Notes: generated from the sequence alone by a model not told the origin. 64,000 bases of DNA from a bacterium (GCA_040390065.1 JAZJZE010000011.1:162367-226366); one strand, 5' to 3'; counted from the first letter of the stretch, positions 28,039 through 64,000 are shown. A program made the numbers and translations.

Positions 28039-29991
28039 ATGACCACGATGCCCAAGAACGACCCTGACCCAGAGCGCAACCAGACCTTCTTCCGGGCGCT
28101 CAGCCGGCGTCTTCGTGCCCAATCGTCGCAGGCGCGCCAACGCCGCAAGCCCGCCGATGCGTCAGCGTCCGGGAAAGAGGCCGCACGCCTCGACCAGCCC
28201 GGCCCGTCGCCGGATCCGCGCGCGGACGCGCCGGCTGCGCCATTGCGCGCCGCGACGACGCCCGCGGGCGCCGAACTCGGCCAGGGGGCCGCGGGGGTGC
28301 GGGGCGCGGCCGCGCCGGCTGCAGCCGGTCCGGGCAAGGACCGCTCCGCCCCGCGCCAGGCCCGCCAAGTCCGCAGCGAAGCGCCCACCGTCCCGGTTGG
28401 CCGCTTCGATCCACGCCGCGAGCCGGCGGCCGGGCCGCCCGTGGTCGTCATGCCCCCCGTCCCTGCCGGCCACCGGGAAGTGGAATCCACGCCCGTCATC
28501 CCCGAGCGCGCCTGGGTGCGCATCCTCCTGGACGAGAACACGCGGACGTACGTGTACGAAGTCATCGAACCCACGCTCAGCCCCGACGAGCAGGAGATCC
28601 TCGAATTCCTGCGCGACACCCTGACGCGCACGCTCGACGGCCGCAAGGTCACCGTGGGAACGCCATCCGACTGGGCGCAGGTACTGACGGAGGCGACGCG
28701 GCGCGCCATCAAGGAATACGCCATCCGGATCGACCCGGTGGGCGCCCTGCGCGTCGAATACTACCTGGTTCGCGATTTCCTCGGCTACGGCCGCATCGAC
28801 GTCATGATGCGCGACGGCATGCTCGAGGACATCTCGTGCGATGGCCCGAACATCCCGATCTACCTGTTCCACCGCAAGTACGAGTCGCTGCGCACGAACG
28901 TCGTGTTCAACGACGAATTGGAGCTGGACGGGTTCGTGATCCGCTTGGCCCAGCGCTGCGGCAAACACATCAGTGTTGCAGACCCGCTCTTGGACGCGAC
29001 GCTTCCCGACGGTTCACGTCTGCAGACGACCTTGAGCCGTGAGGTGACGACGCGCGGCAGTTCCTTCACGGTGCGCAAGTTCCGCGCCGACCCGATGACG
29101 CCGCCGGACCTGGTGCGTTTCGGCACGATGTCGGCCGAGATGGCTGCCTACTTCTGGTTCGTGATGGAGATGGGCGCCTCGTTCATGATTGCGGGCGGCA
29201 CGGCCTCCGGCAAGACGACGAGCCTCAACGCCATCAGCCAGTTCATCCCGCCGGAGAAGAAGATCGTCTCCATCGAGGACACCCGCGAAATCAACCTGAG
29301 CCACGAGAACTGGATCGCGGGCATCACCCGCAGCGGCTTCGGCGGCGAGATCGTCGGCGGCAAGCTCGCCGGCACCATCGACATGTACAAGCTCCTCGAA
29401 GCCGCCCTGCGGCAGCGCCCGGAGTACTTGCTGGTCGGCGAAGTGCGCGGGCCAGAGGCGCTCACGTTGTTCCAAGCAATGGCGACGGGCCACGCGGTCT
29501 ACTCCACGATGCACGCGGACTCCGTGGCCAGCGCCGTCTACCGGTTGGAGGGCGCTCCCATCAACGTGCCCCGCATGATGCTGCAGACGCTCGACATCAT
29601 CGCCATCCAAGCCCAGGTCCGCATCAAGGACCGCATGACGCGACGCATCCGCGAAGTCACCGAGGTCGTCGGCTTCGACCCTGAGACGAAGGAGCTTCTG
29701 ACGAACAAGGTGTTCGAGTGGGACGTGCGCGAAGACAAGCACCGTTTCCTCGGCAAGTCCTACGTCCTCGAGCAAGTGCGCGAAGCCCGCAACCTGCCAG
29801 AGGAGAAGCTGCAGGAGGAGTTCCGCCGCCGCATCGAGGTGCTCGAGTGGATGATGCGCGAGAACATCCGGCACTATGCCGACGTTGCACGGGCCGTGAG
29901 CGCATACTACCGCGACCCCGAGCACTTCCTCGAGGCCATCCGCAAGGGCAAGGGAGCCCTGCAGGTGGCCGGAGGCGGCCATGGTGCGTAG
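28039..29991 (+). CDS. Type II/IV secretion (pilus assembly) ATPase
   Basis: EDISCDG, GGTASGKTT, IEDTRE, ALRQRPE, GEVRG, TGH-STMHA. Confidence 0.93.
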   Translation: MTTMPKNDPDPERNQTFFRALSRRLRAQSSQARQRRKPADASASGKEAARLDQPGPSPDPRADAPAAPLRAATTPAGAELGQGAAGVRGAAAPAAAGPGKDRSAPRQARQVRSEAPTVPVGRFDPRREPAAGPPVVVMPPVPAGHREVESTPVIPERAWVRILLDENTRTYVYEVIEPTLSPDEQEILEFLRDTLTRTLDGRKVTVGTPSDWAQVLTEATRRAIKEYAIRIDPVGALRVEYYLVRDFLGYGRIDVMMRDGMLEDISCDGPNIPIYLFHRKYESLRTNVVFNDELELDGFVIRLAQRCGKHISVADPLLDATLPDGSRLQTTLSREVTTRGSSFTVRKFRADPMTPPDLVRFGTMSAEMAAYFWFVMEMGASFMIAGGTASGKTTSLNAISQFIPPEKKIVSIEDTREINLSHENWIAGITRSGFGGEIVGGKLAGTIDMYKLLEAALRQRPEYLLVGEVRGPEALTLFQAMATGHAVYSTMHADSVASAVYRLEGAPINVPRMMLQTLDIIAIQAQVRIKDRMTRRIREVTEVVGFDPETKELLTNKVFEWDVREDKHRFLGKSYVLEQVREARNLPEEKLQEEFRRRIEVLEWMMRENIRHYADVARAVSAYYRDPEHFLEAIRKGKGALQVAGGGHGA

Positions 29992-30862
29992 CTTCGAACG
30001 CGTCGCCTACAAGATCTTCGGCCGCCAGGCCCGCGCCGGCACGAAGCGCAATGCCCATCTCGGCACCGCGCTGCAGAAGGCGCACATCCCGGTGCGGCCG
30101 GACGTGTACCTGAGCTCCGCGTACCTGATAGCGGCCCTGGCGGGCATCCTCGCTGCCCTCCCCGTGGTCTTCATCCTGCTTCTGGGCGCAGGTGGCCGCC
30201 TCGCCGTGTCCCCGACGATGATGCTCTTCCTGGTCCCGGCGCCGATCATCATCACGGGCATCGTCTACTTGGTGGCCCTTGTGCTTCCAGACATGCGCGC
30301 CCTCTCACGCGTGCGCAACATCAACGCCAAACTCCCGTACGCCTTGAACTACCTCTCCACCATGGCGGCCGCCGGCGCCACGCCGGAGTCGTTGTTTGCG
30401 ACGCTGGCCGTGCAGCCCATCTACGGCGACGTCTCGGAGGAGGCGGCCTGGATCGTCCGCGACCTACGCGTCCTCGGCCTCGACGTCATCACGGCCCTGC
30501 AGCGCGGCATCGACCGCTCGCCCAGCCCCAAGTTCCAGGACCTCCTGCAAGGGACGGTCACCGCGTTGACGTCGGGCGGCGACCTCAAGACGTACTTTGC
30601 CAACAAGGCCGACCAGTACATCGTGGAGAACCGCCAGGACCAGCGCCGCTTCCTCGACGGCCTAGGGGTGCTTGCCGAGTCCTTCGTGACGGTCGTCGTC
30701 GCAGCGCCGCTCTTCCTCATCGTCATCCTCTCCGTCATGAGCAGCTTCGGCGGCTCGCCCGAGCAGACGCTCTTCCTGGGGTACTCGCTCGTGTTCTTCC
30801 TGATCCCCATCTCGCAACTGGCATTCGCCTGGACGATCAAGGTCATGACTCCGGAGGCCTAG
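29981..30862 (+). CDS. Pilus assembly membrane protein (T2SS F / PilC-TadC)
   Basis: LPYALNY, YGDVSEE, G-D--TAL, SGGDLKTYF. Confidence 0.88.
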   Translation: MVRSFERVAYKIFGRQARAGTKRNAHLGTALQKAHIPVRPDVYLSSAYLIAALAGILAALPVVFILLLGAGGRLAVSPTMMLFLVPAPIIITGIVYLVALVLPDMRALSRVRNINAKLPYALNYLSTMAAAGATPESLFATLAVQPIYGDVSEEAAWIVRDLRVLGLDVITALQRGIDRSPSPKFQDLLQGTVTALTSGGDLKTYFANKADQYIVENRQDQRRFLDGLGVLAESFVTVVVAAPLFLIVILSVMSSFGGSPEQTLFLGYSLVFFLIPISQLAFAWTIKVMTPEA

Positions 30863-30863
30863 G

Positions 30864-32720
30864 ATGGGCCGGGATCCGCTGGCAAAGGCCAGTCGCGCGG
30901 ACGTGCGCGCAGGCTGGCTCACCGCCCTCCTGTTCGCCTCCGCTGTCATCACCGTGGCAAGCGCCGGGCTGGCACTCGGTGTTCCCTCGGGCTACTACGA
31001 CCGCTACGCCGGCGCGCTCCTGGGCCTCGGGCTCGTCATGGCTGCCGCCGGCGCCGTCGCCGCCACGCCCCGACCGACGTCCGGGCTGCTGACGGTCGGG
31101 CAGATTCGCGCCCTGGAAGAGACCACGACCGGCGTCAAGGTCTTCGCTCTCCTGGTCCGCCTCATCGGCCTCGTCGCCGTCGCCATCCTCATCCTGTCCC
31201 TTCTGACCCGGGCGGGCTACCTGCACTCGTTCCTCGACGGCGTGCCGCTGCGGCGCGGTGTCTTCCTGCTCGTCATCGTGCTGGCGGGTTCACTCGCGTA
31301 TGTCCAGACGCGCACACTGCGCCGGCCTGTCGATCACGTGCCCAACATGGCAGCGCGCACCGTGCAGACCCTGGCGCTGGCCCTCATGGTTGCACTCACC
31401 GCCGTCGGCGTCTGGCTCGCCGTCCGCGTGGAGGCCGCCGACGTCGTGGCCTTCGGCATCACGGGCTCGGACTTCCCCTACTTCATCCTGGCCGCCGAAG
31501 TCGCGTGCGCCATCTCACTTGCGGCATCACGGGCCCTGCCGAGCATCGCCTCCCTCGTGGGCTCCGACCAACGCGCCGGCGCCCACGGCCGCACCGGGAA
31601 AGGCACACTCGTCTTCCTGCCCGTCGTGCTGGCGTTCTTCCTCGTCTTCCTCGTCGTCCTGCTGATCGTCATCTTTGGCGTGGGTTTCGCCGGGGCGATG
31701 CGTGAAGTCGCCGACAGCCCCTACCTCCTGCTTGCGCTCCTCTTCCTGGTCGGCGCCTTCGGAGTGAGTCTCATGGCCGCGTTCCGGCTGTCGCGCGCCG
31801 AGGCCAAGGCGGCACCCCTGTACAAGAAGCTGGTCGACGCCAAGAAACGCCGCGAGCGCATCCTCATTGCAGCGTCCATCATCGGCGCCGTTGCCCTCTT
31901 CATCCCGGCCTTCCTGCTGTTCAAGGGCAGCGCGTTCCTCGGGTTCGCCACCGACGCATGGATCCATTTCCTGTGCCTTGGCCTGCTCGTGCTTCTGGGG
32001 CCCTACGGCTTCTACACGGCCGCCGAGAGCCGGCGCGTCCGCCTGCTCGAAGAGCGCTTCCCGGACTTCCTTCGCGACGTCGCATCCAGCCACAAAGGCG
32101 GCCTGACGCTCGCGCAGTCGGTCGCCGTCGCAGCCCGCGGCGAATATGGGCCGCTCAGCCCCGAAGTGCAACGCATGGCCGACCAGCTCTCCTGGAACGT
32201 GCCGTTCAACGAGGCCCTCGAGCGCTTCAGCGGCCGCGTCCAGACGCCGCTCGTGCAACGCGCCGTGAGCCTCATCCTCGAAGCCAACCGGTCTGGCGGC
32301 GCGACGACGGACGTCCTGCTTGCCGCGGCCCGCGACGCCCGCGAGATCAAGTTCCTCGAGCAGGACCGTCGCATCAACATGAGCCTGTACACGGTCGTCA
32401 TCTACGTGACGTTCTTCGTGTTCCTCGGCGTCACGGCCGTCCTGTACGCGCAGTTCGTGCCCCAACTCGTGCAATCCAGCAACGCCGCGGCAAAACTGGC
32501 GCAGTCGAGCTCGGGGGGCTCCATCACGGGGATCACGAGCGGCACCCTGGACCTGAAGGACTTCCAGTTGTTCTACTTCATGGCCGCCATCATGCAGGGT
32601 CTCGGCGACGGCATCGTGGCGGGCATGATGGGCTCGGGCAAGCCCGGCCTCGGCCTCAGGCACTCCTTCATCATGGTCGCCCTGAGCTACGTCACCTTCG
32701 TCTTCGTCATCCGCGCGTAA
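30864..32720 (+). CDS. Second T2SS F / PilC protein with long multi-TM N-terminal extension
   Basis: FPDFLRD, GEYGPL, SGG--DVL in C-terminal half. Confidence 0.85.
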   Translation: MGRDPLAKASRADVRAGWLTALLFASAVITVASAGLALGVPSGYYDRYAGALLGLGLVMAAAGAVAATPRPTSGLLTVGQIRALEETTTGVKVFALLVRLIGLVAVAILILSLLTRAGYLHSFLDGVPLRRGVFLLVIVLAGSLAYVQTRTLRRPVDHVPNMAARTVQTLALALMVALTAVGVWLAVRVEAADVVAFGITGSDFPYFILAAEVACAISLAASRALPSIASLVGSDQRAGAHGRTGKGTLVFLPVVLAFFLVFLVVLLIVIFGVGFAGAMREVADSPYLLLALLFLVGAFGVSLMAAFRLSRAEAKAAPLYKKLVDAKKRRERILIAASIIGAVALFIPAFLLFKGSAFLGFATDAWIHFLCLGLLVLLGPYGFYTAAESRRVRLLEERFPDFLRDVASSHKGGLTLAQSVAVAARGEYGPLSPEVQRMADQLSWNVPFNEALERFSGRVQTPLVQRAVSLILEANRSGGATTDVLLAAARDAREIKFLEQDRRINMSLYTVVIYVTFFVFLGVTAVLYAQFVPQLVQSSNAAAKLAQSSSGGSITGITSGTLDLKDFQLFYFMAAIMQGLGDGIVAGMMGSGKPGLGLRHSFIMVALSYVTFVFVIRA

Positions 32721-32739
32721 GGTGCGACCATGCAAACGC

Positions 32740-32747
32740 CTTAAGAA
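32740..32747 (+). promoter_or_regulatory. Putative TATA box for the tRNA-Glu locus
   Basis: cttaagaa in a GC-rich context, ~25-30 nt before the 57-bp array. Confidence 0.4.
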
Positions 32748-32769
32748 CGGCCCCAAAGTCGCCGCTTCC

Positions 32770-32940
32770 GTGCCCAAGGCCCTCGTGGGTCTCGGGCCCT
32801 CCGTCTGGCCTCGCGGCTGGACATCGGTGCCCAAGGCCCTCGTGGGTCTCGGGCCCTCCGTCTGGCCTCGCGGCTGGACATCGGTGCCCAAGGCCCTCAC
32901 GGGTCTCGGGCCCTCCGTCTGGCCTAACGGCCAGACATCG
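32770..32940. repeat. 3 x 57-bp tandem repeat abutting tRNA-Glu 5' end
   Basis: Units 32770-32826, 32827-32883 (identical) and 32884-32940 (variant). Confidence 0.95.
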
Positions 32941-33013
32941 GGTCCTGTAGTGTAGCGGCCAATCATGGTGCCCTCTCACGGCACCGACCCGGGTTCAAAT
33001 CCCGGCGGGACCA
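32941..33013 (+). tRNA. tRNA-Glu(CTC)
   Basis: Acceptor GGTCCTG/CGGGACC, anticodon arm GTGCC-CTCTCAC-GGCAC, T arm CCGGG-TTCAAAT-CCCGG. Confidence 0.95.
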
Positions 33014-33127
33014 TTGCAGTGGCGCGAAGCGACCTGCCGATGGCCCGACGGGTTTGAGGCGCCGGCCCATGGCCGCGCCGGACCGGGCGGCCCGCAAGGG
33101 CAGCGCGGGCAAATCCCGGCGGGACCA
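33014..33127 (+). repeat. tRNA-Glu 3'-anchored module (antisense plus direct copy of tRNA 3' end)
   Basis: caaatcccggcgggacca at 32996-33013 repeated at 33110-33127; antisense-like tggcccgacgggtttga at 33041-33057. Confidence 0.85.
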
Positions 33128-33143
33128 CTCGGAAACAAGAAGC

Positions 33144-33431
33144 GAGCGAAGCGATGCTTCGTTTTCGAGTGGCCGAGCGCCGAAGGCGCGAGGTATGCCC
33201 GCGGTTGCGCCTAAGCGCGACCGTGGGCTCCAACAAGTCGCCCGCAGGCGACTTGGGGACTTGGCTGAAGAGCGAAGCGATGCTTCGTTTTCGAGTGGCC
33301 GAGGCGCGCCGCAGGCGTCGCCGAGGAATGCCCGCGGCCGTCGTCAGACGGCCGTGGGCTCCAACAAGTCGCCCGCAGGCGACTTGGGGAGTTGGCTGGC
33401 GAGCGAAGCGATGCTTCGTTTTCGAGTGGCC
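33144..33431. repeat. Structured tandem array, period 126/131 bp
   Basis: 31-mer gagcgaagcgatgcttcgttttcgagtggcc at 33144, 33270 and 33401, with homologous hairpin-rich intervals. Confidence 0.92.
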
Positions 33432-33850
33432 TAGCGCGTCTGGACCGTTTGCCTCGTGAGGCGTTCCAGGATGGGCGCCGCGGTCTCGGGGTCGTCGACG
33501 CGCAGGTAGATCTGCCCGCTGCCACCGGCTGCGCTGCCGAAGCAGGAGACGATGTTGACGTTCGCCTTGCCGAGGGCCTCGCCGATGCGGGCCAGTTCTC
33601 CTGGCTGGTTTGGCACGTGCAGTTCGAAGCACTCGACGGTCTCCGGCTCGTACCCGGCGTCGGACAAGACTCGGACTGCCTTCTCGGGGCTGGACGTGCG
33701 CAGACGGATGCCGCTTGCTTCCGTGGCGAACGCTTCGATGTTGATGCCCTGGTCGTAGAGTACGCGGGCGGCGGCGCCGAGGGTGCCGGGCTCGTCGGGG
33801 GCGTTGGTCGATCCGCTGGGCAGGGTGACGAATTTGGTTGTGGTTGTCAT
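33431..33850 (-). CDS. Tandem ACT domain protein
   Basis: DEPGTL...GINIEAF and NQPGELARI...NVNI. Confidence 0.88.
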   Translation of the reverse strand: MTTTTKFVTLPSGSTNAPDEPGTLGAAARVLYDQGINIEAFATEASGIRLRTSSPEKAVRVLSDAGYEPETVECFELHVPNQPGELARIGEALGKANVNIVSCFGSAAGGSGQIYLRVDDPETAAPILERLTRQTVQTR

Positions 33851-33984
33851 GGTGTGTCCTCCCGGACACGAGGCGAAGAGGGTGACGTTGGAACGTGTTG
33901 CGCTGGCGGCAATGCCAGAGCCCGCGCCTGGGGGTTGACCGGTTCAGGAAACGCACGCCGGCGCGTTGTGTCCCGGCCTGGGCA

Positions 33985-36900
33985 TCACTTTGCGGCGACC
34001 CGGCGAGCACGTGCCGGGCGGCTGGCGGCTGGCGCGCCTTCCGCCATCTTGGCCTTCTGCGACAGGATGGGCTTGAGGAATTCGCCGGTGTAGCTCGCGG
34101 CGACTTGGGTGATCTCCTCGGGCGTGCCCTCGGCGATGACCTGGCCGCCGGCGTCGCCGCCTTCGGGGCCGAGGTCGATGACCCAGTCGGCGCACTTCAC
34201 GACGTCGAGGTTGTGCTCGATGACCACGACCGTGTTGCCCTGCTCGACGAGGCGCTGCAGAACGCCAAGCAGGTGTTTCGTGTCGTGCACGTGCAGGCCC
34301 GTCGTGGGCTCGTCGAGGATGTAGAGCGTGCGCCCGGTGCCGCGGCGAGAGAGTTCGGTGGCAAGCTTGACGCGTTGCGCCTCTCCGCCGGACAACTGTG
34401 TGGCGGGCTGTCCCAGGCGGATGTAGCCGAGGCCAACGTCGTTGATGGTGGCGAGCTTGTTGCGGATCTGCGGGATGTTCTCGAAGAAGCCGAGCGCCTC
34501 CTCGACGGAGAGGTCGAGGACTTCGCGGATGTTCTTGCCCTTGTACTTGACTTGCAGCGTCTCCTTGTTGTAGCGCGCCCCCTTGCACACTTCGCAGGGC
34601 ACGTAGACGTCGGGGAGGAAGTGCATCTCGATCTTGACGACGCCGTCCCCTTCGCACGACTCGCAGCGGCCGCCCTTGACGTTGAAGCTGAAGCGGCCGG
34701 TCTTGTAGCCGCGTGCCTTGGCGTCGCCAGTCATGGCGAACAGGTCGCGAATCGGTGTCCACACGCCCGTGTAGGTGGCGGGGTTGCTGCGCGGTGTGCG
34801 GCCGATGGGGGACTGGTCGATGTCGATGACCTTGTCGACGTTGGCGAGTCCATCGATGCGGACGTGCTTGCCGGGCCGCTCGCCGCCCATGAGACCGAGT
34901 TGGCGCAGCGCAGCCTTGTAGAGCGTCTCGTTGATGAGCGTCGACTTGCCCGAGCCCGACACTCCCGTCACTGCGACGAAGAGGCCGAGCGGGATGTCGA
35001 CGTTGACTTTCTTGAGATTGTTCTCCTCGGCGCCGACGATGCGGATGCTATGCATGCCGCGTTCCCTGCGGGATGGCGGGATGGGGACCTGCAGCTTGCC
35101 CGCAAGGTACTGGCCGGTCAGCGACTTGGGGTTGCGAGCGACGTCGGCTGGCGTCCCCGAGGCGAGGAGGTAGCCGCCGTGCTCGCCTGCGCCGGGCCCG
35201 AGGTCGATGAGCCAATCCGCCGCGCGCATCGTGTCCTCGTCATGCTCGACGACGAGGACGGTGTTGTCGAGGTCGCGAAGGCGGCGCAGCGTGGCAAGGA
35301 GGCGGTGGTTGTCGCGCTGGTGCAGGCCGATGGAGGGCTCGTCGAGGACGTACAGGACGCCTTGCAGGCCGGAGCCGATCTGCGACGCGAGGCGAATGCG
35401 TTGCGACTCGCCACCGGACAACGTGCCCGACGCGCGGTCGAGGTCGAGGTAGTTGAGGCCAACATCGTCGAGGAAGCGCAGGCGTTCCACGATTTCCTTC
35501 AGGATCTCCTTGGCGACCTTGTTTTCGCGTTCGCCGAGATGCGTGGGCAGATCGCGGAACCAGGCAAGCCCATGGTTGACCGCGAGGCGCGTGGATTCGA
35601 TGATGTTCTTGCCGTTCACCTTCACGGCGAGGACTTCGGGCTTGAGCCTCCAGCCACGGCAGGCGCCACACGGTCGCTCGGACATGAATTCCGCGATGCG
35701 CTCCTTGGCGCGCTCCGACTCGGATTCCCGCAGCAGCCGCTGCATGCGCACCGACAGGCCTTCCCACTTCGATTCGCCCCCCCAACGAGTGGCGATTCCT
35801 TCGGGGCTGCCGAACAGGACGACTTCCTTGTGCGCCTCGGGCAAGGATTTCCACGGCACGTCGATGGAGACCCCCAGTTCTTCGCAGACGTGGGCGAGCC
35901 AGCGGCCCATCCATGACCGCATGATGAAGACGTCCGAGTGGAAGGCGCCCTGCCGGATGGACTTCGACTTGTCCTTGATGATCTTGTCCTCGTCGGGCTG
36001 CATCGAGAACCCGAGGCCGGAACATGTCGCGCAGGCGCCGTGCGGAGCGTTGAAACTGAAGATGCGTGGCGTCAGTTCGGCGAGGACGGAGCCGTGGTCG
36101 GGGCAGCCGAAGGCTTCCGAGTAGAGTTGCTCGCTCGGCTTTTGGCTTGGGTCGCGTGACGCACCCGTGCCTTCCGTCCAGACGGTCGCGAGGCCTTCCG
36201 CGGCTTTCATGGCGGTCTCGATGGCGTCGGAGAGGCGGCCTTCGAAGGCGGCGGCCTCGTCGCCCTTCTTCACCACGAGGCGGTCGACGACGACGTCGAT
36301 GGAGTGCTTGTACGTCTTCTCCAGCTTCCACGCGTCGCCGATCTCGCCGAACTTACCGTCGACGCGGACCCGGCTGAAGCCTTGCGCCTGCAGGTCCTTG
36401 AGGAGGCGCTGGAATTCGCCCTTGCGGTCGCGCACGACGGGGGCGAGGACCTGGACCTTCGTGCCGTCGGCAAGGCGCTTGGTCTCCTCGACGATTTGGT
36501 CCACCGACATCTTGCCGATGCCGCGGCCGCACTTCGGGCAATGCGGGACGCCGATGTGGGCCCACAGCAGGCGCAGGTAGTCGTAGATCTCCGTTGTCGT
36601 GCCCACGGTGGAGCGCGGGTTCTTCGAGGTGGTCTTCTGGTCGATCGAGATGGCGGGGGACAGGCCTTCGATGTGGTCGACCTCGGGCTTCTTCATCTGG
36701 CCCAGGAACTGGCGAGCGTAGGCGGAGAGGGATTCGACGTAGCGCCGCTGGCCTTCGGCGTAGATGGTGTCGAAGGCGAGACTGGACTTGCCGCTGCCGG
36801 ACAGGCCGGTCACGACGACGAGTTTGTTGCGCGGGATCTCGACGTCGATGCCCTTGAGGTTATGCTCGCGTGCACCCCTCACAATGATAGAGCCGGTCAT
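33985..36900 (-). CDS. uvrA: Excinuclease ABC subunit A
   Basis: [31 protein letters not shown], two ABC domains, zinc fingers. Confidence 0.98.
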
Positions 36901-36998
36901 TGACTTGTTTCACTCGACTCCAAGGAGGCGTTTAGGGGTTTGGGAGGGGGTGAGTGAAGACGAGGCCGCCCCGGCGGCCGGGGCGTGCCGGCGGGCGC

Positions 36999-37628
36999 TC
37001 AGACTTTCCCCAGGATATGCCCCATCTTGCCCTTCTTCGTCTCGAGGTAGCCTCGGTTGACGTCGTTGGGCGCAATCTCGAGGGGGATGCGTTCGGCGCA
37101 GTCGAAGCCGAGTTCGCGCATGGCCTCGACTTTGTGGGGATTGTTGGTGAGGAGGCGGATTTTCTTGACGCCGAGGTCGTCGAGGATGTCCTTTGCCGCC
37201 TCGTAGGTGCGGGCGTCCACCGGGTGGCCGAGCTGAAGATTGGCCTCCACAGTGTCGAGGCCCTGTTCCTGCAATTCGTAGGCGAGGATCTTGTTGGTGA
37301 GGCCGATGTCGCGGCCTTCCTGGCGCAGGTACAGCACCAGGCCTCGCCCCGCGCGTTCGATGATGCGAAGAGATTCCTGCAGTTGCGCGCCGCAGTCGCA
37401 GCGCTGCGACCCGAAGATGTCGCCGGTCAGGCATTCGCTGTGGATGCGCACCAGGACAGGAGTGTTGCCGCCGACGTTTCCCTTCACGATGGCCGCATGC
37501 TCCTTTCCGGTGAGGACCTCGCGGTAGACGTGGATGCGGAAGGCGCCGTACTTGGTGGGCAGGTCGGCGCCGGCTGCGTGCACCGCGGCCTGGCGAACCT
37601 TGGGGGCCTTCACGACTTTCGCGCTCAT
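36999..37628 (-). CDS. ribA: GTP cyclohydrolase II
   Basis: [26 protein letters not shown]. Confidence 0.95.
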
Positions 37629-37736
37629 CGTGGGCAATCGATGTCCCTGGCCGTTAAACCCATTGGGGTCGGCGCAAGAACCAGCGGCCCGTCGCGCGCC
37701 GCAACGCTGTTTTACTGCCCAAACGTGGGCCTCGCG

Positions 37737-38930
37737 ATGGCAAAGCCCGACGGGTGGCTCAAGCGCAAGGTGCCGGGACTGCACCACTTCCTCACGCGCC
37801 GTGACAAGCCGTTCCCGTTCCTGCGCGAAGTGCTGTTCGGCATCCTCGCCATCGTCCTCCTCGTAGCTCTCCTGTACGGCCTCACTGGCCAGTCCATCGC
37901 AGGCGGCTACCCGGTGGTCGTCGTCACGTCGGGCAGCATGATGCATTGCACCAACCCCGTCGAGCGCCACGACCTCGGAAATCTTTGCGACCCAGAGACG
38001 TACGGCCGCGTCGGCACCATCGACCCGGGCGACCTCGTCTTCGTGCGGCACGTCTCGGACCCAAACGACGTGTCCACCAAGGCCGCGGGCGGCGCTTGGC
38101 ATTACGGCGGCTCTGGCGACGTGATCGTCTACCGGCCCAACGGCGACACGAGGCCGACACCAATCATTCACCGCGCGCTGTTCTGGCTCCAAGTGAATTC
38201 CGGCGGCTCCGTCATCGCGCGAGAATCCCCGACCGGCCAGCCCATCACGGACTTGCAGGCGGAACTGCTGGCCGGCTGCTCGAGCTCCAGCCTTCGTCAC
38301 GACGGCGGGCCCGACGCCTCGGGCTTCATCACCCGCGGCGACAACAACGGCGCCGCCGACCAATGCCCCACCGGCGGCCTCGGCACACAGCCCGTGCGGC
38401 TAACGTACATCCTCGGCAAGGCGCGCGGCGAACTGCCCTGGATCGGCCTCGTGAAACTCTGGGTCGACGACTTTACCACGGGGACGGCAAACTTCGCCAA
38501 CGCGGGCGGGGACTCCAAGACGATGCTGCTTGCCACCGTCGTCGTCCTGGTCGGAACACCCTGGGGATTGGACCTCTACGTCCGGCGCCAGGCCAAGATG
38601 CGCGAAACGGCACACGGTGCTGCCCAGGCCGGCCGCGACCCGAAACGCAAGGCAGGCGAAACCAAGGACCGCCGCGCCGCCATGGCCCTGAGTGCATTCC
38701 TGCCGGGAGGCGGGCAGGCCTACGTTGGAGCCAAGATGGACACCGGCCTCATGGTCGCCATCCAGCTGGCGGGTTGGCTTCTCGCATGGTTCATGCTGGG
38801 GACGCTGCGGGTGCCGCTATGGATTGGAGTGTTGCCCGTCGTCGGAGCCTCCCTCCTGTCGGCGGCAAACGCCAAGGCTCTCTGCGACGACTTCAACGCG
38901 CGGCCGGAAGGCACCGGCGGCAGCGGTTGA
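37737..38930 (+). CDS. Signal peptidase I (S26, Sec11-type) with C-terminal membrane extension
   Basis: VVTSGSM, GDVIVY, IIHR, TRGDNN, LPWIG. Confidence 0.88.
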   Translation: MAKPDGWLKRKVPGLHHFLTRRDKPFPFLREVLFGILAIVLLVALLYGLTGQSIAGGYPVVVVTSGSMMHCTNPVERHDLGNLCDPETYGRVGTIDPGDLVFVRHVSDPNDVSTKAAGGAWHYGGSGDVIVYRPNGDTRPTPIIHRALFWLQVNSGGSVIARESPTGQPITDLQAELLAGCSSSSLRHDGGPDASGFITRGDNNGAADQCPTGGLGTQPVRLTYILGKARGELPWIGLVKLWVDDFTTGTANFANAGGDSKTMLLATVVVLVGTPWGLDLYVRRQAKMRETAHGAAQAGRDPKRKAGETKDRRAAMALSAFLPGGGQAYVGAKMDTGLMVAIQLAGWLLAWFMLGTLRVPLWIGVLPVVGASLLSAANAKALCDDFNARPEGTGGSG

Positions 38931-39083: not shown

Positions 39084-39257
39084 TCGGCCTCGCCTGCGGG
39101 CATCGGCCCGCCACGGCGACCGCTTCGCAAGGTCGCCTGGACGCGCCTGCGGGCATCGGCCCGTCTGGTCTCGGGCTTCGCGGGAATCTGCGGGTCGGCC
39201 TCGCCTGCCGGCATCGGCCCGTCTGGTCTAGAGCCTTCGGCTAACTAGACCAGACGG
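39084..39257. repeat. Short repeat cluster mirroring the cdc6 3' end
   Basis: cgcctgc(g/c)ggcatcggcccg at 39091, 39144, 39202; ccgtctggtctag (39219-39231) is the inverse of 39245-39257. Confidence 0.8.
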
Positions 39258-63672: not shown

Positions 63673-63927
63673 AGCCGCCTGGGCGATTTGAACACCTGCG
63701 CCGTGGCCCTTGCGGGCCCCGGCTCCGCTTCGCTGGGTGTCCAAATCGCCAGCGGGCATCGCGTGCGCGCTCGGGGCGACGCACCTCGATAAGCCGCCTG
63801 GGCGATTTGACCACCCACCGTGCGGCCGGAGCAAGTCCGGCCGCACAGTCCGCCTCGCCTACGGCTCGGCTGGGTGCTCAAATGCCAAGGACGGCGGCTC
63901 GGGGCGCCTGCGGCGCGTCCCATTGCA
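63673..63927 (-). repeat. Two tRNA-Thr 3'-anchored modules (136 and 119 bp)
   Basis: agccgcctgggcgatttga at 63673, 63792 and 63928; inverted degenerate copies at 63735-63757 and 63872-63899. Confidence 0.9.
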
Positions 63928-64000
63928 AGCCGCCTGGGCGATTTGAACACCCGACCTGCTGATTACGAATCAGCTGCTCTACCAACTGAGCTAAGGCGGC
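63928..64000 (-). tRNA. tRNA-Thr(CGT)
   Basis: Acceptor GCCGCCT/AGGCGGC, anticodon arm GCTGA-TTCGTAA-TCAGC, T arm GGGTG-TTCAAAT-CGCCC. Confidence 0.95.

Follow-up and report, generated by a model that had tools for sequence, protein, structure and literature searches.

Partial copies of a tRNA gene next to the gene itself are known from several systems. At the tyrT/tyrV locus of Escherichia coli, whose repeats date from 1978, RtT units (RF00391; rttR, tpr) follow the tRNA gene in tandem, and each unit ends in a ~19-nt copy of the tRNA 3' end. Elements that integrate into tRNA genes by means of a tyrosine integrase, and their gene-less derivatives (CIMEs, described in bacteria), are flanked by directly repeated copies of the tRNA sequence between the T-loop and the 3' end; the copy brought by the element restores the gene, the resident end is displaced, and elements can accrete in tandem. 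Williams is said to have described in 2002 the tRNA fragments left by such integration. The integron attC site and CTX attP(+) each contain two imperfect inverted copies of the site, tens of nucleotides apart, which fold on one strand. REP/BIME/REPIN-RAYT sequences are small GC-rich mosaic hairpin repeats at gene ends with strand-specific folding, and in IS200/IS605 an internal guide of 4–5 nt pairs with the target. Here, we analysed a stretch of 64,000 nt (G000:C11:162367-226366, where G000 is the host genome and C11 the contig), referred to as the window, in which the gene for tRNA-Glu(CTC) is followed at 33014-33127 by a module of 114 nt without an open reading frame. We consider the chances about evenly balanced that this module belongs to a family of miniature integrative (mobile) elements that contain no genes.

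The tRNA-Glu(CTC) gene, the target of the module, was located at 32941..33013 on the plus strand (ARAGORN; Rfam tRNA model, 58 bits) and does not encode CCA. Its final part, from C56 in the T-loop to the discriminator base (32996..33013), is the functional 3' end of the tRNA and recurs with 18/18 identity at 33110-33127 (repeat search D4). We refer to this target gene-end block as T. Downstream of the proximal T, and on the same strand as all further features of the module, lies the left part X (33014..33040), which comprises the trailer TTGCAGTGG (33014-33022) and the small hairpin CGCGAAGCG with a GAA loop (33023-33031). The antisense arm T' (33041..33056) is an imperfect complement of T, and is followed by the inner hairpins P2 (33058..33079) and P3 (33083..33108); the latter has the tip GGCCC-GCAA-GGGC and abuts the distal T (33110..33127), the exact 18-nt repeat. 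In the minimum-energy fold T' pairs with 33110-33127, thus forming the 5' and 3' strands, respectively, of helix P1. All features that an initial annotation of the window had claimed behind tRNA-Glu were found at these positions. The same annotation had reported a similar order behind tRNA-Thr(CGT), the second target, at the edge of the window (63928..64000, minus strand; ARAGORN). Two modules are present there in tandem, both terminated by an exact copy of the 3' end of this tRNA: a proximal module of 136 nt (63792..63927, minus strand) with X, arm, P2, P3 and a 19-nt copy, and a distal module of 119 nt (63673..63791, minus strand) with a 24-nt copy. The scaffold proposed to be shared by the two loci was confirmed for the distal Thr module, for which the similarity to the Glu interior was significant (reached by 0/300 shuffles), but not for the proximal one (reached by 129/300 shuffles). 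Hairpin blocks are mosaic across modules, and the P3 block of the Glu module recurs in the Arg-TCG module and in Thr module 2.

The G000 assembly (2.68 Mb in 50 contigs, 66.8% GC) yielded 52 tRNA calls with ARAGORN. A scan of all of them for downstream copies, as suggested in the initial annotation, was positive at 18 and negative at 34, a copy being defined as a match of at least 15/18 to the last 18 nt of the tRNA at most 700 nt downstream. One of the positives was merely a tandem pair of tRNA-Tyr genes, which leaves 17 module-bearing tRNAs. Copies were exact in 13 of the 18, with 17/18 matches in four and 16/18 in one; an exact 18-mer within 700 nt is expected by chance with a probability of ~1e-8 per gene, and the repeat is far beyond chance. 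The copies nearly always start in the T-loop (C56 or T55) and stop at the discriminator, with no CCA after them. Modules occur in tandem pairs at five tRNAs and were 96–162 nt long in the 20 that were folded (of 23; one with Ns and two longer than 170 nt were excluded). Five tRNAs carry mirrored modules on the 5' side, which duplicate the leader and 18–43 nt of the 5' part of the tRNA. The junction sequence that had been taken as a mark of the modules did not hold up: in a genome-wide comparison of the first 8 nt, TGCA immediately followed ~9 tRNA genes, only three of them module-bearing. Because TGCA is also found at tRNAs without a module it is not module-specific, and might instead be a trailer or a signal for processing that is particular to this lineage.

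The three-way junction was found in most of the 20 folds. It comprises X, T', P2, P3 and the distal T, is closed by the pairing of T' with T, and is often preceded by a hairpin with a GAAG or GCAG loop in X. For a comparison across targets, 18 module cores from G000 and its relative G004 were aligned with MAFFT, with no structure imposed (alignment A1), and a covariance model, R1, was derived from the alignment. Conserved words flank the junction: GGGTTYG in the arm, then CCGAYG and CGAGGWAWC on the two sides of P2, and then P3. In the RNAalifold structure of A1, 90.7% of the cells were paired versus 75.6% in column shuffles (reached by 0/500), and 27–55% were paired when the partners were slid by 1–3 columns. 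Changes on both sides were seen in 14 of the 22 pairs, and 11 of these fall among the 13 pairs of P3. The inner hairpins and the scaffold thereby show covariation beyond that of shuffled columns. Helix P1, seen in the individual folds, is likewise backed by the RNAalifold structure and the pair counts. The Glu module (33040-33128) scored 39.7 bits against R1, yet it is one of the training sequences; its P2 falls within a stretch of variable length between the closing pairs (columns 20-21 with 56-57) and lacks the CC...GG closing motif. A regular expression for the junction motifs was uninformative (226 matches versus 167 in the reversed genome).

Modules are not confined to tRNA genes. R1 matched 23 places in G000 at E≤1, of which 11 were training sequences, and the 12 others include copies of canonical form downstream of two protein genes, both on contig C9. 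One of these (C9:218200-218283) follows a gene labelled acyl-CoA-dehydrogenase-like from its C-terminal peptide alone, and its repeat consists of the last ~33 nt of the gene. At the second gene (C9:35344-35428) the distal copy extends the reading frame by 14 codons, and the insertion therefore lies inside the coding tail; the stop codon is supplied by the start of the element, TGAGCG.AGCGA. The end of the acyl-CoA-dehydrogenase-like orthologue was compared in nine congeners in which it is conserved (G005, G008 and G009 gave no pattern match and G012 has a divergent tail; these were left out). The site is empty in five (G007, G010, G003, G002 and G004), all of which stop with TAG. It is filled in four: G000 and G011 with one module each, G006 with two in tandem, and G001 with a reduced module without P2. 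Where the filled site is canonical (three genomes), the TGA of the element terminates the proximal copy. The two copies in G000 differ at four third-codon positions, all of them synonymous, and in TGA versus TAG; their identity of ~85% is on par with the 82–88% identity of the gene body between species, and over 33 nt the distal copy and the allele of G001 are the same. Synonymous changes and one Ser/Thr codon separate the two copies in G011, both residues being present in empty-site relatives. The middle copy in G006 is a chimera that resembles the distal copy on its left and the proximal copy on its right, which is what an exchange within T would produce. A divergence that is only synonymous, unlike that of a local non-coding duplicate, argues that the two copies are different alleles, each with a history as coding sequence. 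It would follow that the element carries its own gene end, has moved between lineages and underwent exchange inside T. Thus, the comparison of gene ends supports the view that at the acyl-CoA-dehydrogenase-like gene the copy of the element completes the gene and the resident end was probably displaced. At tRNA-Glu both T copies are identical, so that a brought-in and a displaced end are indistinguishable there.

The distribution of the modules among relatives was surveyed in 38 genomes of the order. R1 matched 13 of the 38 at E≤0.001, all belonging to one family (f1), with 18 matches in G000, 14 in G004, 10 in G037 and six each in G006 and G007; six congeners had none. Presence or absence was also variable at single loci, among them loci with identical tRNAs. 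No copy was found downstream of tRNA-Glu(CTC) in nine of the 10 congeners examined, five of which have an identical tRNA. The tRNA-Glu(CTC) module of G011 has a different interior, three modules lie in tandem behind this tRNA in G020, a member of another family, and one in G013. A second sample yielded one contig with an identical tRNA-Glu followed by a different sequence. At tRNA-Thr(CGT), G007 has an orthologous single module that is 83% identical over the tRNA and the first module, with compensatory changes in P3, and a neighbouring gene that is only 78% identical; modules were absent from the five other congeners whose locus was compared. A survey of the 30 best-scoring tRNA loci in each of five genomes gave downstream copies at 6/28 in G007, 5/31 in G004, 1/31 in G020 and 3/34 in G017 (two of them whole-gene tandems), and at 0/31 in G025, a class-level relative with 39% GC. 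Modules at Gln-TTG, Gly-TCC, Arg-CCG and Gly-GCC are common to G000 and G004. The distribution is patchy, and modules come and go among close relatives; orthologous modules nevertheless persist across species (G000/G004 and G000/G007) with compensatory changes.

These data are consistent with the following scheme. Each element of ~100–160 nt would be tied to one target, the last 18–45 nt (T) of a tRNA or protein gene, giving the integrated order gene body, T, X, T', P2, P3, T. The element would bring in the copy of T that completes the gene (the proximal one), at protein genes with an X that opens with a TGA stop codon, and the distal T would be the displaced resident end; at tRNA-Glu the distal T would be the original 3' end. 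The layout would be of the Campbell type, with exchange in the left part of T, which in tRNAs is the T-loop and T-stem. T' would complement this left part, and on one strand only P1 would close the three-way junction of P1, CCGAYG-P2-CGAGGWAWC and P3. The fold may rebuild the recombination site in single-stranded DNA, as in attC or CTX attP, and a recombinase supplied in trans may use the folded site. Renewed integration, or unequal exchange involving two copies of T, could generate the tandem arrays. The initial annotation had proposed minimal tRNA-targeting mobile units, the most fitting of its three interpretations; presence and absence, tandems, an att-like block similar in kind to that of an integrase-bearing element at tRNA-Lys(CTT) in G000, and the allelic copies agree with mobility, but the restriction to tRNA 3' ends has to be given up, since protein gene ends and tRNA 5' ends are also used.

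The modules share with tRNA-integrating elements the direct repeat that bounds them, and differ from integrase elements and CIMEs in their length of 96–162 nt, the lack of genes, a single folded scaffold across many targets, an internal arm complementary to the att block, and strand-specific folding. Like attC and CTX attP(+), the modules contain imperfect inverted copies of the site, and their folding is confined to one strand. Recognition of this kind, by shape, would permit a variable sequence and would require no element-encoded gene in the site; the targets of the modules are gene ends of unrelated sequence, whereas those of attC and CTX are attI or dif. REP/REPIN and IS200/IS605 resemble the modules in the features given above, but do not duplicate 18–45 nt of target. 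We found no description of such elements in the full-text literature, a coverage that excludes subscription journals and supplements. A paper on mis-annotated tRNA fragments (PMC9897764) does not cover such modules in its accessible part.

Several points weigh against an integrative origin of the modules. The first is that no enzyme could be linked to them in searches for HUH transposases, Cas1, IS110 transposases and tyrosine recombinases. The Y1 HUH transposase (Pfam Y1_Tnp) that defines REP/REPIN-RAYT and IS200/IS605 systems was found in 0/38 genomes, with a positive control in 6/14 named genomes. The 38 genomes are 65–94% complete, and a missing match therefore does not prove that a gene is absent. 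Cas1 (Cas_Cas1), the mark of casposons and mini-casposons, was likewise found in 0/38, which suggests that this order-level lineage has few or no CRISPR adaptation modules. The IS110 DEDD transposase (DEDD_Tnp_IS110), which would be needed for an IS110/IS1111 bridge-RNA system, occurs in 5/38 genomes but in none of G000, G004, G006 and G007, which are rich in modules (6–18 scaffold copies each). Of the four enzyme families searched across the order, tyrosine recombinases alone (30/38 genomes; six in G000 and eight in G004) occur in module-rich genomes; one serine recombinase gene was met in passing. Of the co-occurring enzymes suggested initially, the HUH nuclease was not found and the tyrosine recombinases track the modules only loosely: G037 has 10 module hits and one integrase, and G011 has no hits and six integrases. 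Secondly, the scaffold is absent from three larger elements examined at tRNA ends. Thirdly, no excised form, empty-site read or RNA was seen: a search for RNA data sets covering 28500-38000 listed none, and the DNA contigs of one study contain no joints or variants. A double-stranded circle of ~110 bp is an unlikely substrate, and the single-stranded form is itself assumed. The T copy that best matches the arm varies, being the proximal one in G000 and G011 and the distal ones in G006, which means that the crossover point is not fixed or has been blurred by later conversion. Furthermore, the scheme leaves the rise of new target specificities unexplained, and the relatedness of the genomes inflates every count.

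The antisense arm also bears on this question. The target part of the modules had been described as tRNA-specific; this is true of the distal copies, which match their own tRNA, but the arm proved only moderately specific. When the own tRNA end was ranked against the 49–50 tRNA ends of G000 by pairing-aware local alignment, it came first in five of the 20 modules, among the top three in 10, among the top 10 in 16 and lower in four; for the Glu arm it was 6th of 50. The part of the arm that faces the acceptor is not significantly target-matched (median relative rank 0.38, Wilcoxon p = 0.34), which is a further point against the integrative scheme, and the arm therefore pairs mainly with the 3' half of the T-loop, the 3' strand of the T-stem and a few bases beyond. 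The long arms (Arg-CCT and both Thr modules) are antisense to the entire T-arm including the loop, and are thus true inverted copies rather than sense copies of the 5' strands of the tRNA. A test of mixed targets with RNAduplex was confounded by GC content and length, and the rank test was used instead.

A bolder form of the integrative scheme, which we regard as possible but unlikely, would make the modules and RtT the first members of a class of protein-less integrating elements programmed by nucleic acid, each consisting of a folded strand of ~100 nt, a guide arm on its own copy of the target and an enzyme acting in trans. A site defined by shape, next to a three-way junction, would then be exchanged with any gene end that matches the arm. 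Base pairing rather than protein-DNA recognition would set the target, and retargeting would come about when the arm and the spare copy change together. The comparison with E. coli tyrT made in the initial annotation is apt in that RtT units have the same layout. The RtT unit of E. coli K-12 (178 nt; locus L219, 1286709-1287236) contains a perfect 10-bp arm complementary to the terminal copy of the tRNA-Tyr 3' end, and this arm closes a multi-hairpin fold as in the archaeal modules. Its score of 20 compares with values in 200 shuffles that average ~12 and peak at 19–23. To our knowledge the 10-bp arm has not been pointed out in the RtT literature. The archaeal modules and RtT are not detectably homologous: the Rfam RtT model gave no match at E≤1 in 32600-33600 and none at the gathering score in the Thr or Lys loci, while its positive control at the E. 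coli locus gave four matches of 133–138 bits, and R1 found nothing in the E. coli tyrT locus. RtT differs further in being known from one E. coli locus, versus 17 tRNA loci and protein genes for the modules, in including CCA in its copy, and in folding slightly better on the opposite strand, whereas the 3' modules fold better on the sense strand. According to one mobilome-sequencing preprint, coverage of the tyrT-rttR region goes up in exonuclease-treated DNA under stress, and the mode of action of RtT is called unknown (10.1101/2024.07.17.603846). The increase is a weak hint that RtT-like units can exist outside the chromosome.

The layout of RtT, with its 10-bp arm on the terminal tRNA-Tyr copy, also suits an explanation in terms of RNA, which we consider unlikely. 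Modules would then be co-transcribed structured RNAs of tRNA operons, an archaeal counterpart of RtT/RttR. A module transcribed by read-through would mimic the acceptor/T-arm helix with P1, and could act in 3' processing, termination, RNA stability or as a small RNA. No run of T residues separates tRNA and module, the compensatory changes between species keep the structure, and the 3' modules are more stable on the tRNA-sense strand in 19 of 20 cases, by a mean of 7.2 kcal/mol. Their folds contain many G.U pairs (61, versus three A.C 1x1 mismatches). In A1 the ratio of G.U to A.C is 38 to 7, or 24 to 7 when one conserved G.U column is left out, and the p value of 0.003 is indicative only, the sequences being related. 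The 5'-side modules behave in the opposite manner: the strand antisense to the tRNA is more stable in all five, by 7–13 kcal/mol, and on this strand they contain the same GAAG-loop hairpins as the 3' modules. The strand bias on both sides shows that the elements point outward from both gene ends. It argues against a co-transcribed RNA, since a transcript from a displaced promoter would be the poorly folding strand, and disfavours the switch in 3' processing that had been proposed earlier. Read-through RNA suits the 3' but not the 5' modules, and a single-stranded DNA form of the module is therefore favoured. The RNA explanation is further opposed by scaffolds behind protein genes, one of which truncates a coding tail, by the missing tRNA-Glu module in nine of 10 congeners and by the allelic difference of the two gene-end copies, which it leaves unexplained. 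In 32600-33600 only the tRNA exceeded the Rfam cut-off, so that no RNA family, RtT included, was matched.

Known RNA structures and motifs were considered as well. Weak sub-threshold Rfam matches (permuted tmRNA, group II D1D4, Acido-Lenti-1) were dismissed. A type I hammerhead fits in topology, but the core reads CCGAYG and not CUGANGA, the hammerhead consensus, and no ribozyme family was among the Rfam matches at E≤1. By inspection, the base of P2 has tandem G.A pairs but not the 3-nt bulge of a K-turn, and inspection of the folds revealed no bulge-helix-bulge (BHB) splicing motif in P1. A primer-binding site of the retroviral type was rejected, the arm having no complement of CCA.

Improbable, in our view, is that the modules are CIME-like scars of full-size integrase elements (viruses, plasmids or islands) and the hairpins a GC-rich filler. 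tRNA fragments left by integration are well known, and larger elements do occur at tRNA ends in G000. An integrated element of 12.5 kb at tRNA-Lys(CTT) (G000:C4:105117-117855; locus L210) starts with a tyrosine recombinase gene (Phage_integrase, 84 bits; 309 aa, G000:C4:105856-106785), followed by that of a serine recombinase (Resolvase, 137 bits); its far end is an 18-nt copy of the tRNA end, beginning in the T-loop. The 3' end of tRNA-Val(GAC) recurs as a 20-nt copy at a distance of 92 kb downstream, ~1.7 kb beyond a match to a tyrosine recombinase (G000:C11:33996-126109, outside the window); this could reflect one island of very large size or two independent events. The kind of repeat, from the T-loop to the 3' end, is common to modules and larger elements. 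Furthermore, mini modules lie distal to larger insertions: a canonical one directly behind the Lys element, with a further copy carrying one mismatch, and another in G004 behind a 2.5-kb insert at a tRNA. The tRNA-Glu(TTC) module is followed by a 3.6-kb insert without a recombinase. Against an origin as scars stand the uniform size of the 20 folded modules and the one covarying scaffold with its junction motifs at many targets in several genomes, and independent decay would leave no matched antisense arm. No integrase gene was found inside a module, nor could module ends be assigned to a known parent element. The absence of the scaffold from the ends of the three larger elements indicates that the modules form a separate class and did not arise from such elements by deletion. 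The Lys element also carries SnoaL-like, peptidase S9-like and nucleotidyltransferase genes; ~100 nt before its right end lies an older, degenerate copy of the T-arm. The 2.5-kb insert of G004 has no recombinase gene, all proteins encoded there being DUF6896- or DUF6188-like.

Distinctly improbable is an origin without any dedicated mobility, in which REP/BIME-like hairpins would be combined with local slippage or template switching and spread between strains by homologous recombination. G000 contains 108 loci with short-range direct repeats of at least 15 nt, the hairpin blocks are mosaic, the tandem units and the G006 chimera would suit unequal exchange, and the searches for HUH, IS110 and Cas1 enzymes revealed no dedicated enzyme. 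However, slippage would hardly place the left boundary of the repeat at a near-constant position in the T-loop in most tRNA modules, nor the same ordered scaffold at unrelated targets, and the synonymous-only divergence implies that a foreign allele came in, as opposed to a duplication in place. Hardly credible, finally, is the earlier idea of an att decoy or shield kept by the host, in which the antisense arm would hold a spare sense copy in a helix and so lure away or obstruct the integrases of invading elements; it is backed circumstantially by the integration at tRNA ends in G000 and by the persistence of modules between species, but has no support of its own, and it conflicts with the 12.5-kb element that integrated at tRNA-Lys despite a module, with the many close relatives without modules, and with the element-supplied stop codons and allelic gene ends, for which it does not account.

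If the modules are miniature integrative elements, integration at a gene end would need no encoded product, and ~100 nt with a spare gene end and a fold would suffice to persist, stack and move between species. This would account for the incomplete tRNA copies that are scattered around archaeal tRNA loci and mislead tRNA annotation, for the changed C-terminal tails that some proteins have and, perhaps, for how the tyrT repeats of E. coli originated. The conserved junction motifs provide a concrete bait in the search for the enzyme. If target choice is indeed by base pairing, the elements would be of interest as a programmable insertion tool.

The surroundings of the Glu module contain further repeats. 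Downstream, at 33142..33437 on the plus strand, ~2.3 related units of 126–131 nt each lie in tandem (repeat searches D2/D3; partial R1 matches of 38.6 and 35.3 bits). They have a P2-P3 core at 33170-33232 and 33296-33363 and lack tRNA-matched arms; in the relative G004 (locus L005) one unit of this type directly follows tRNA-Glu. Upstream, three tandem units of 57 nt (32767-32937; 100, 98 and 88% identical) stop exactly at the 5' end of tRNA-Glu. Each contains two hairpins and a repeat of the leader that abuts the start of the tRNA, and the units may be stacked 5'-side leader duplications. Elsewhere in the window, direct repeats were observed in non-coding-looking DNA at 2242-2469 (16 nt, 212 nt apart) and at 39091-39229 (20 nt, 53–58 nt apart).

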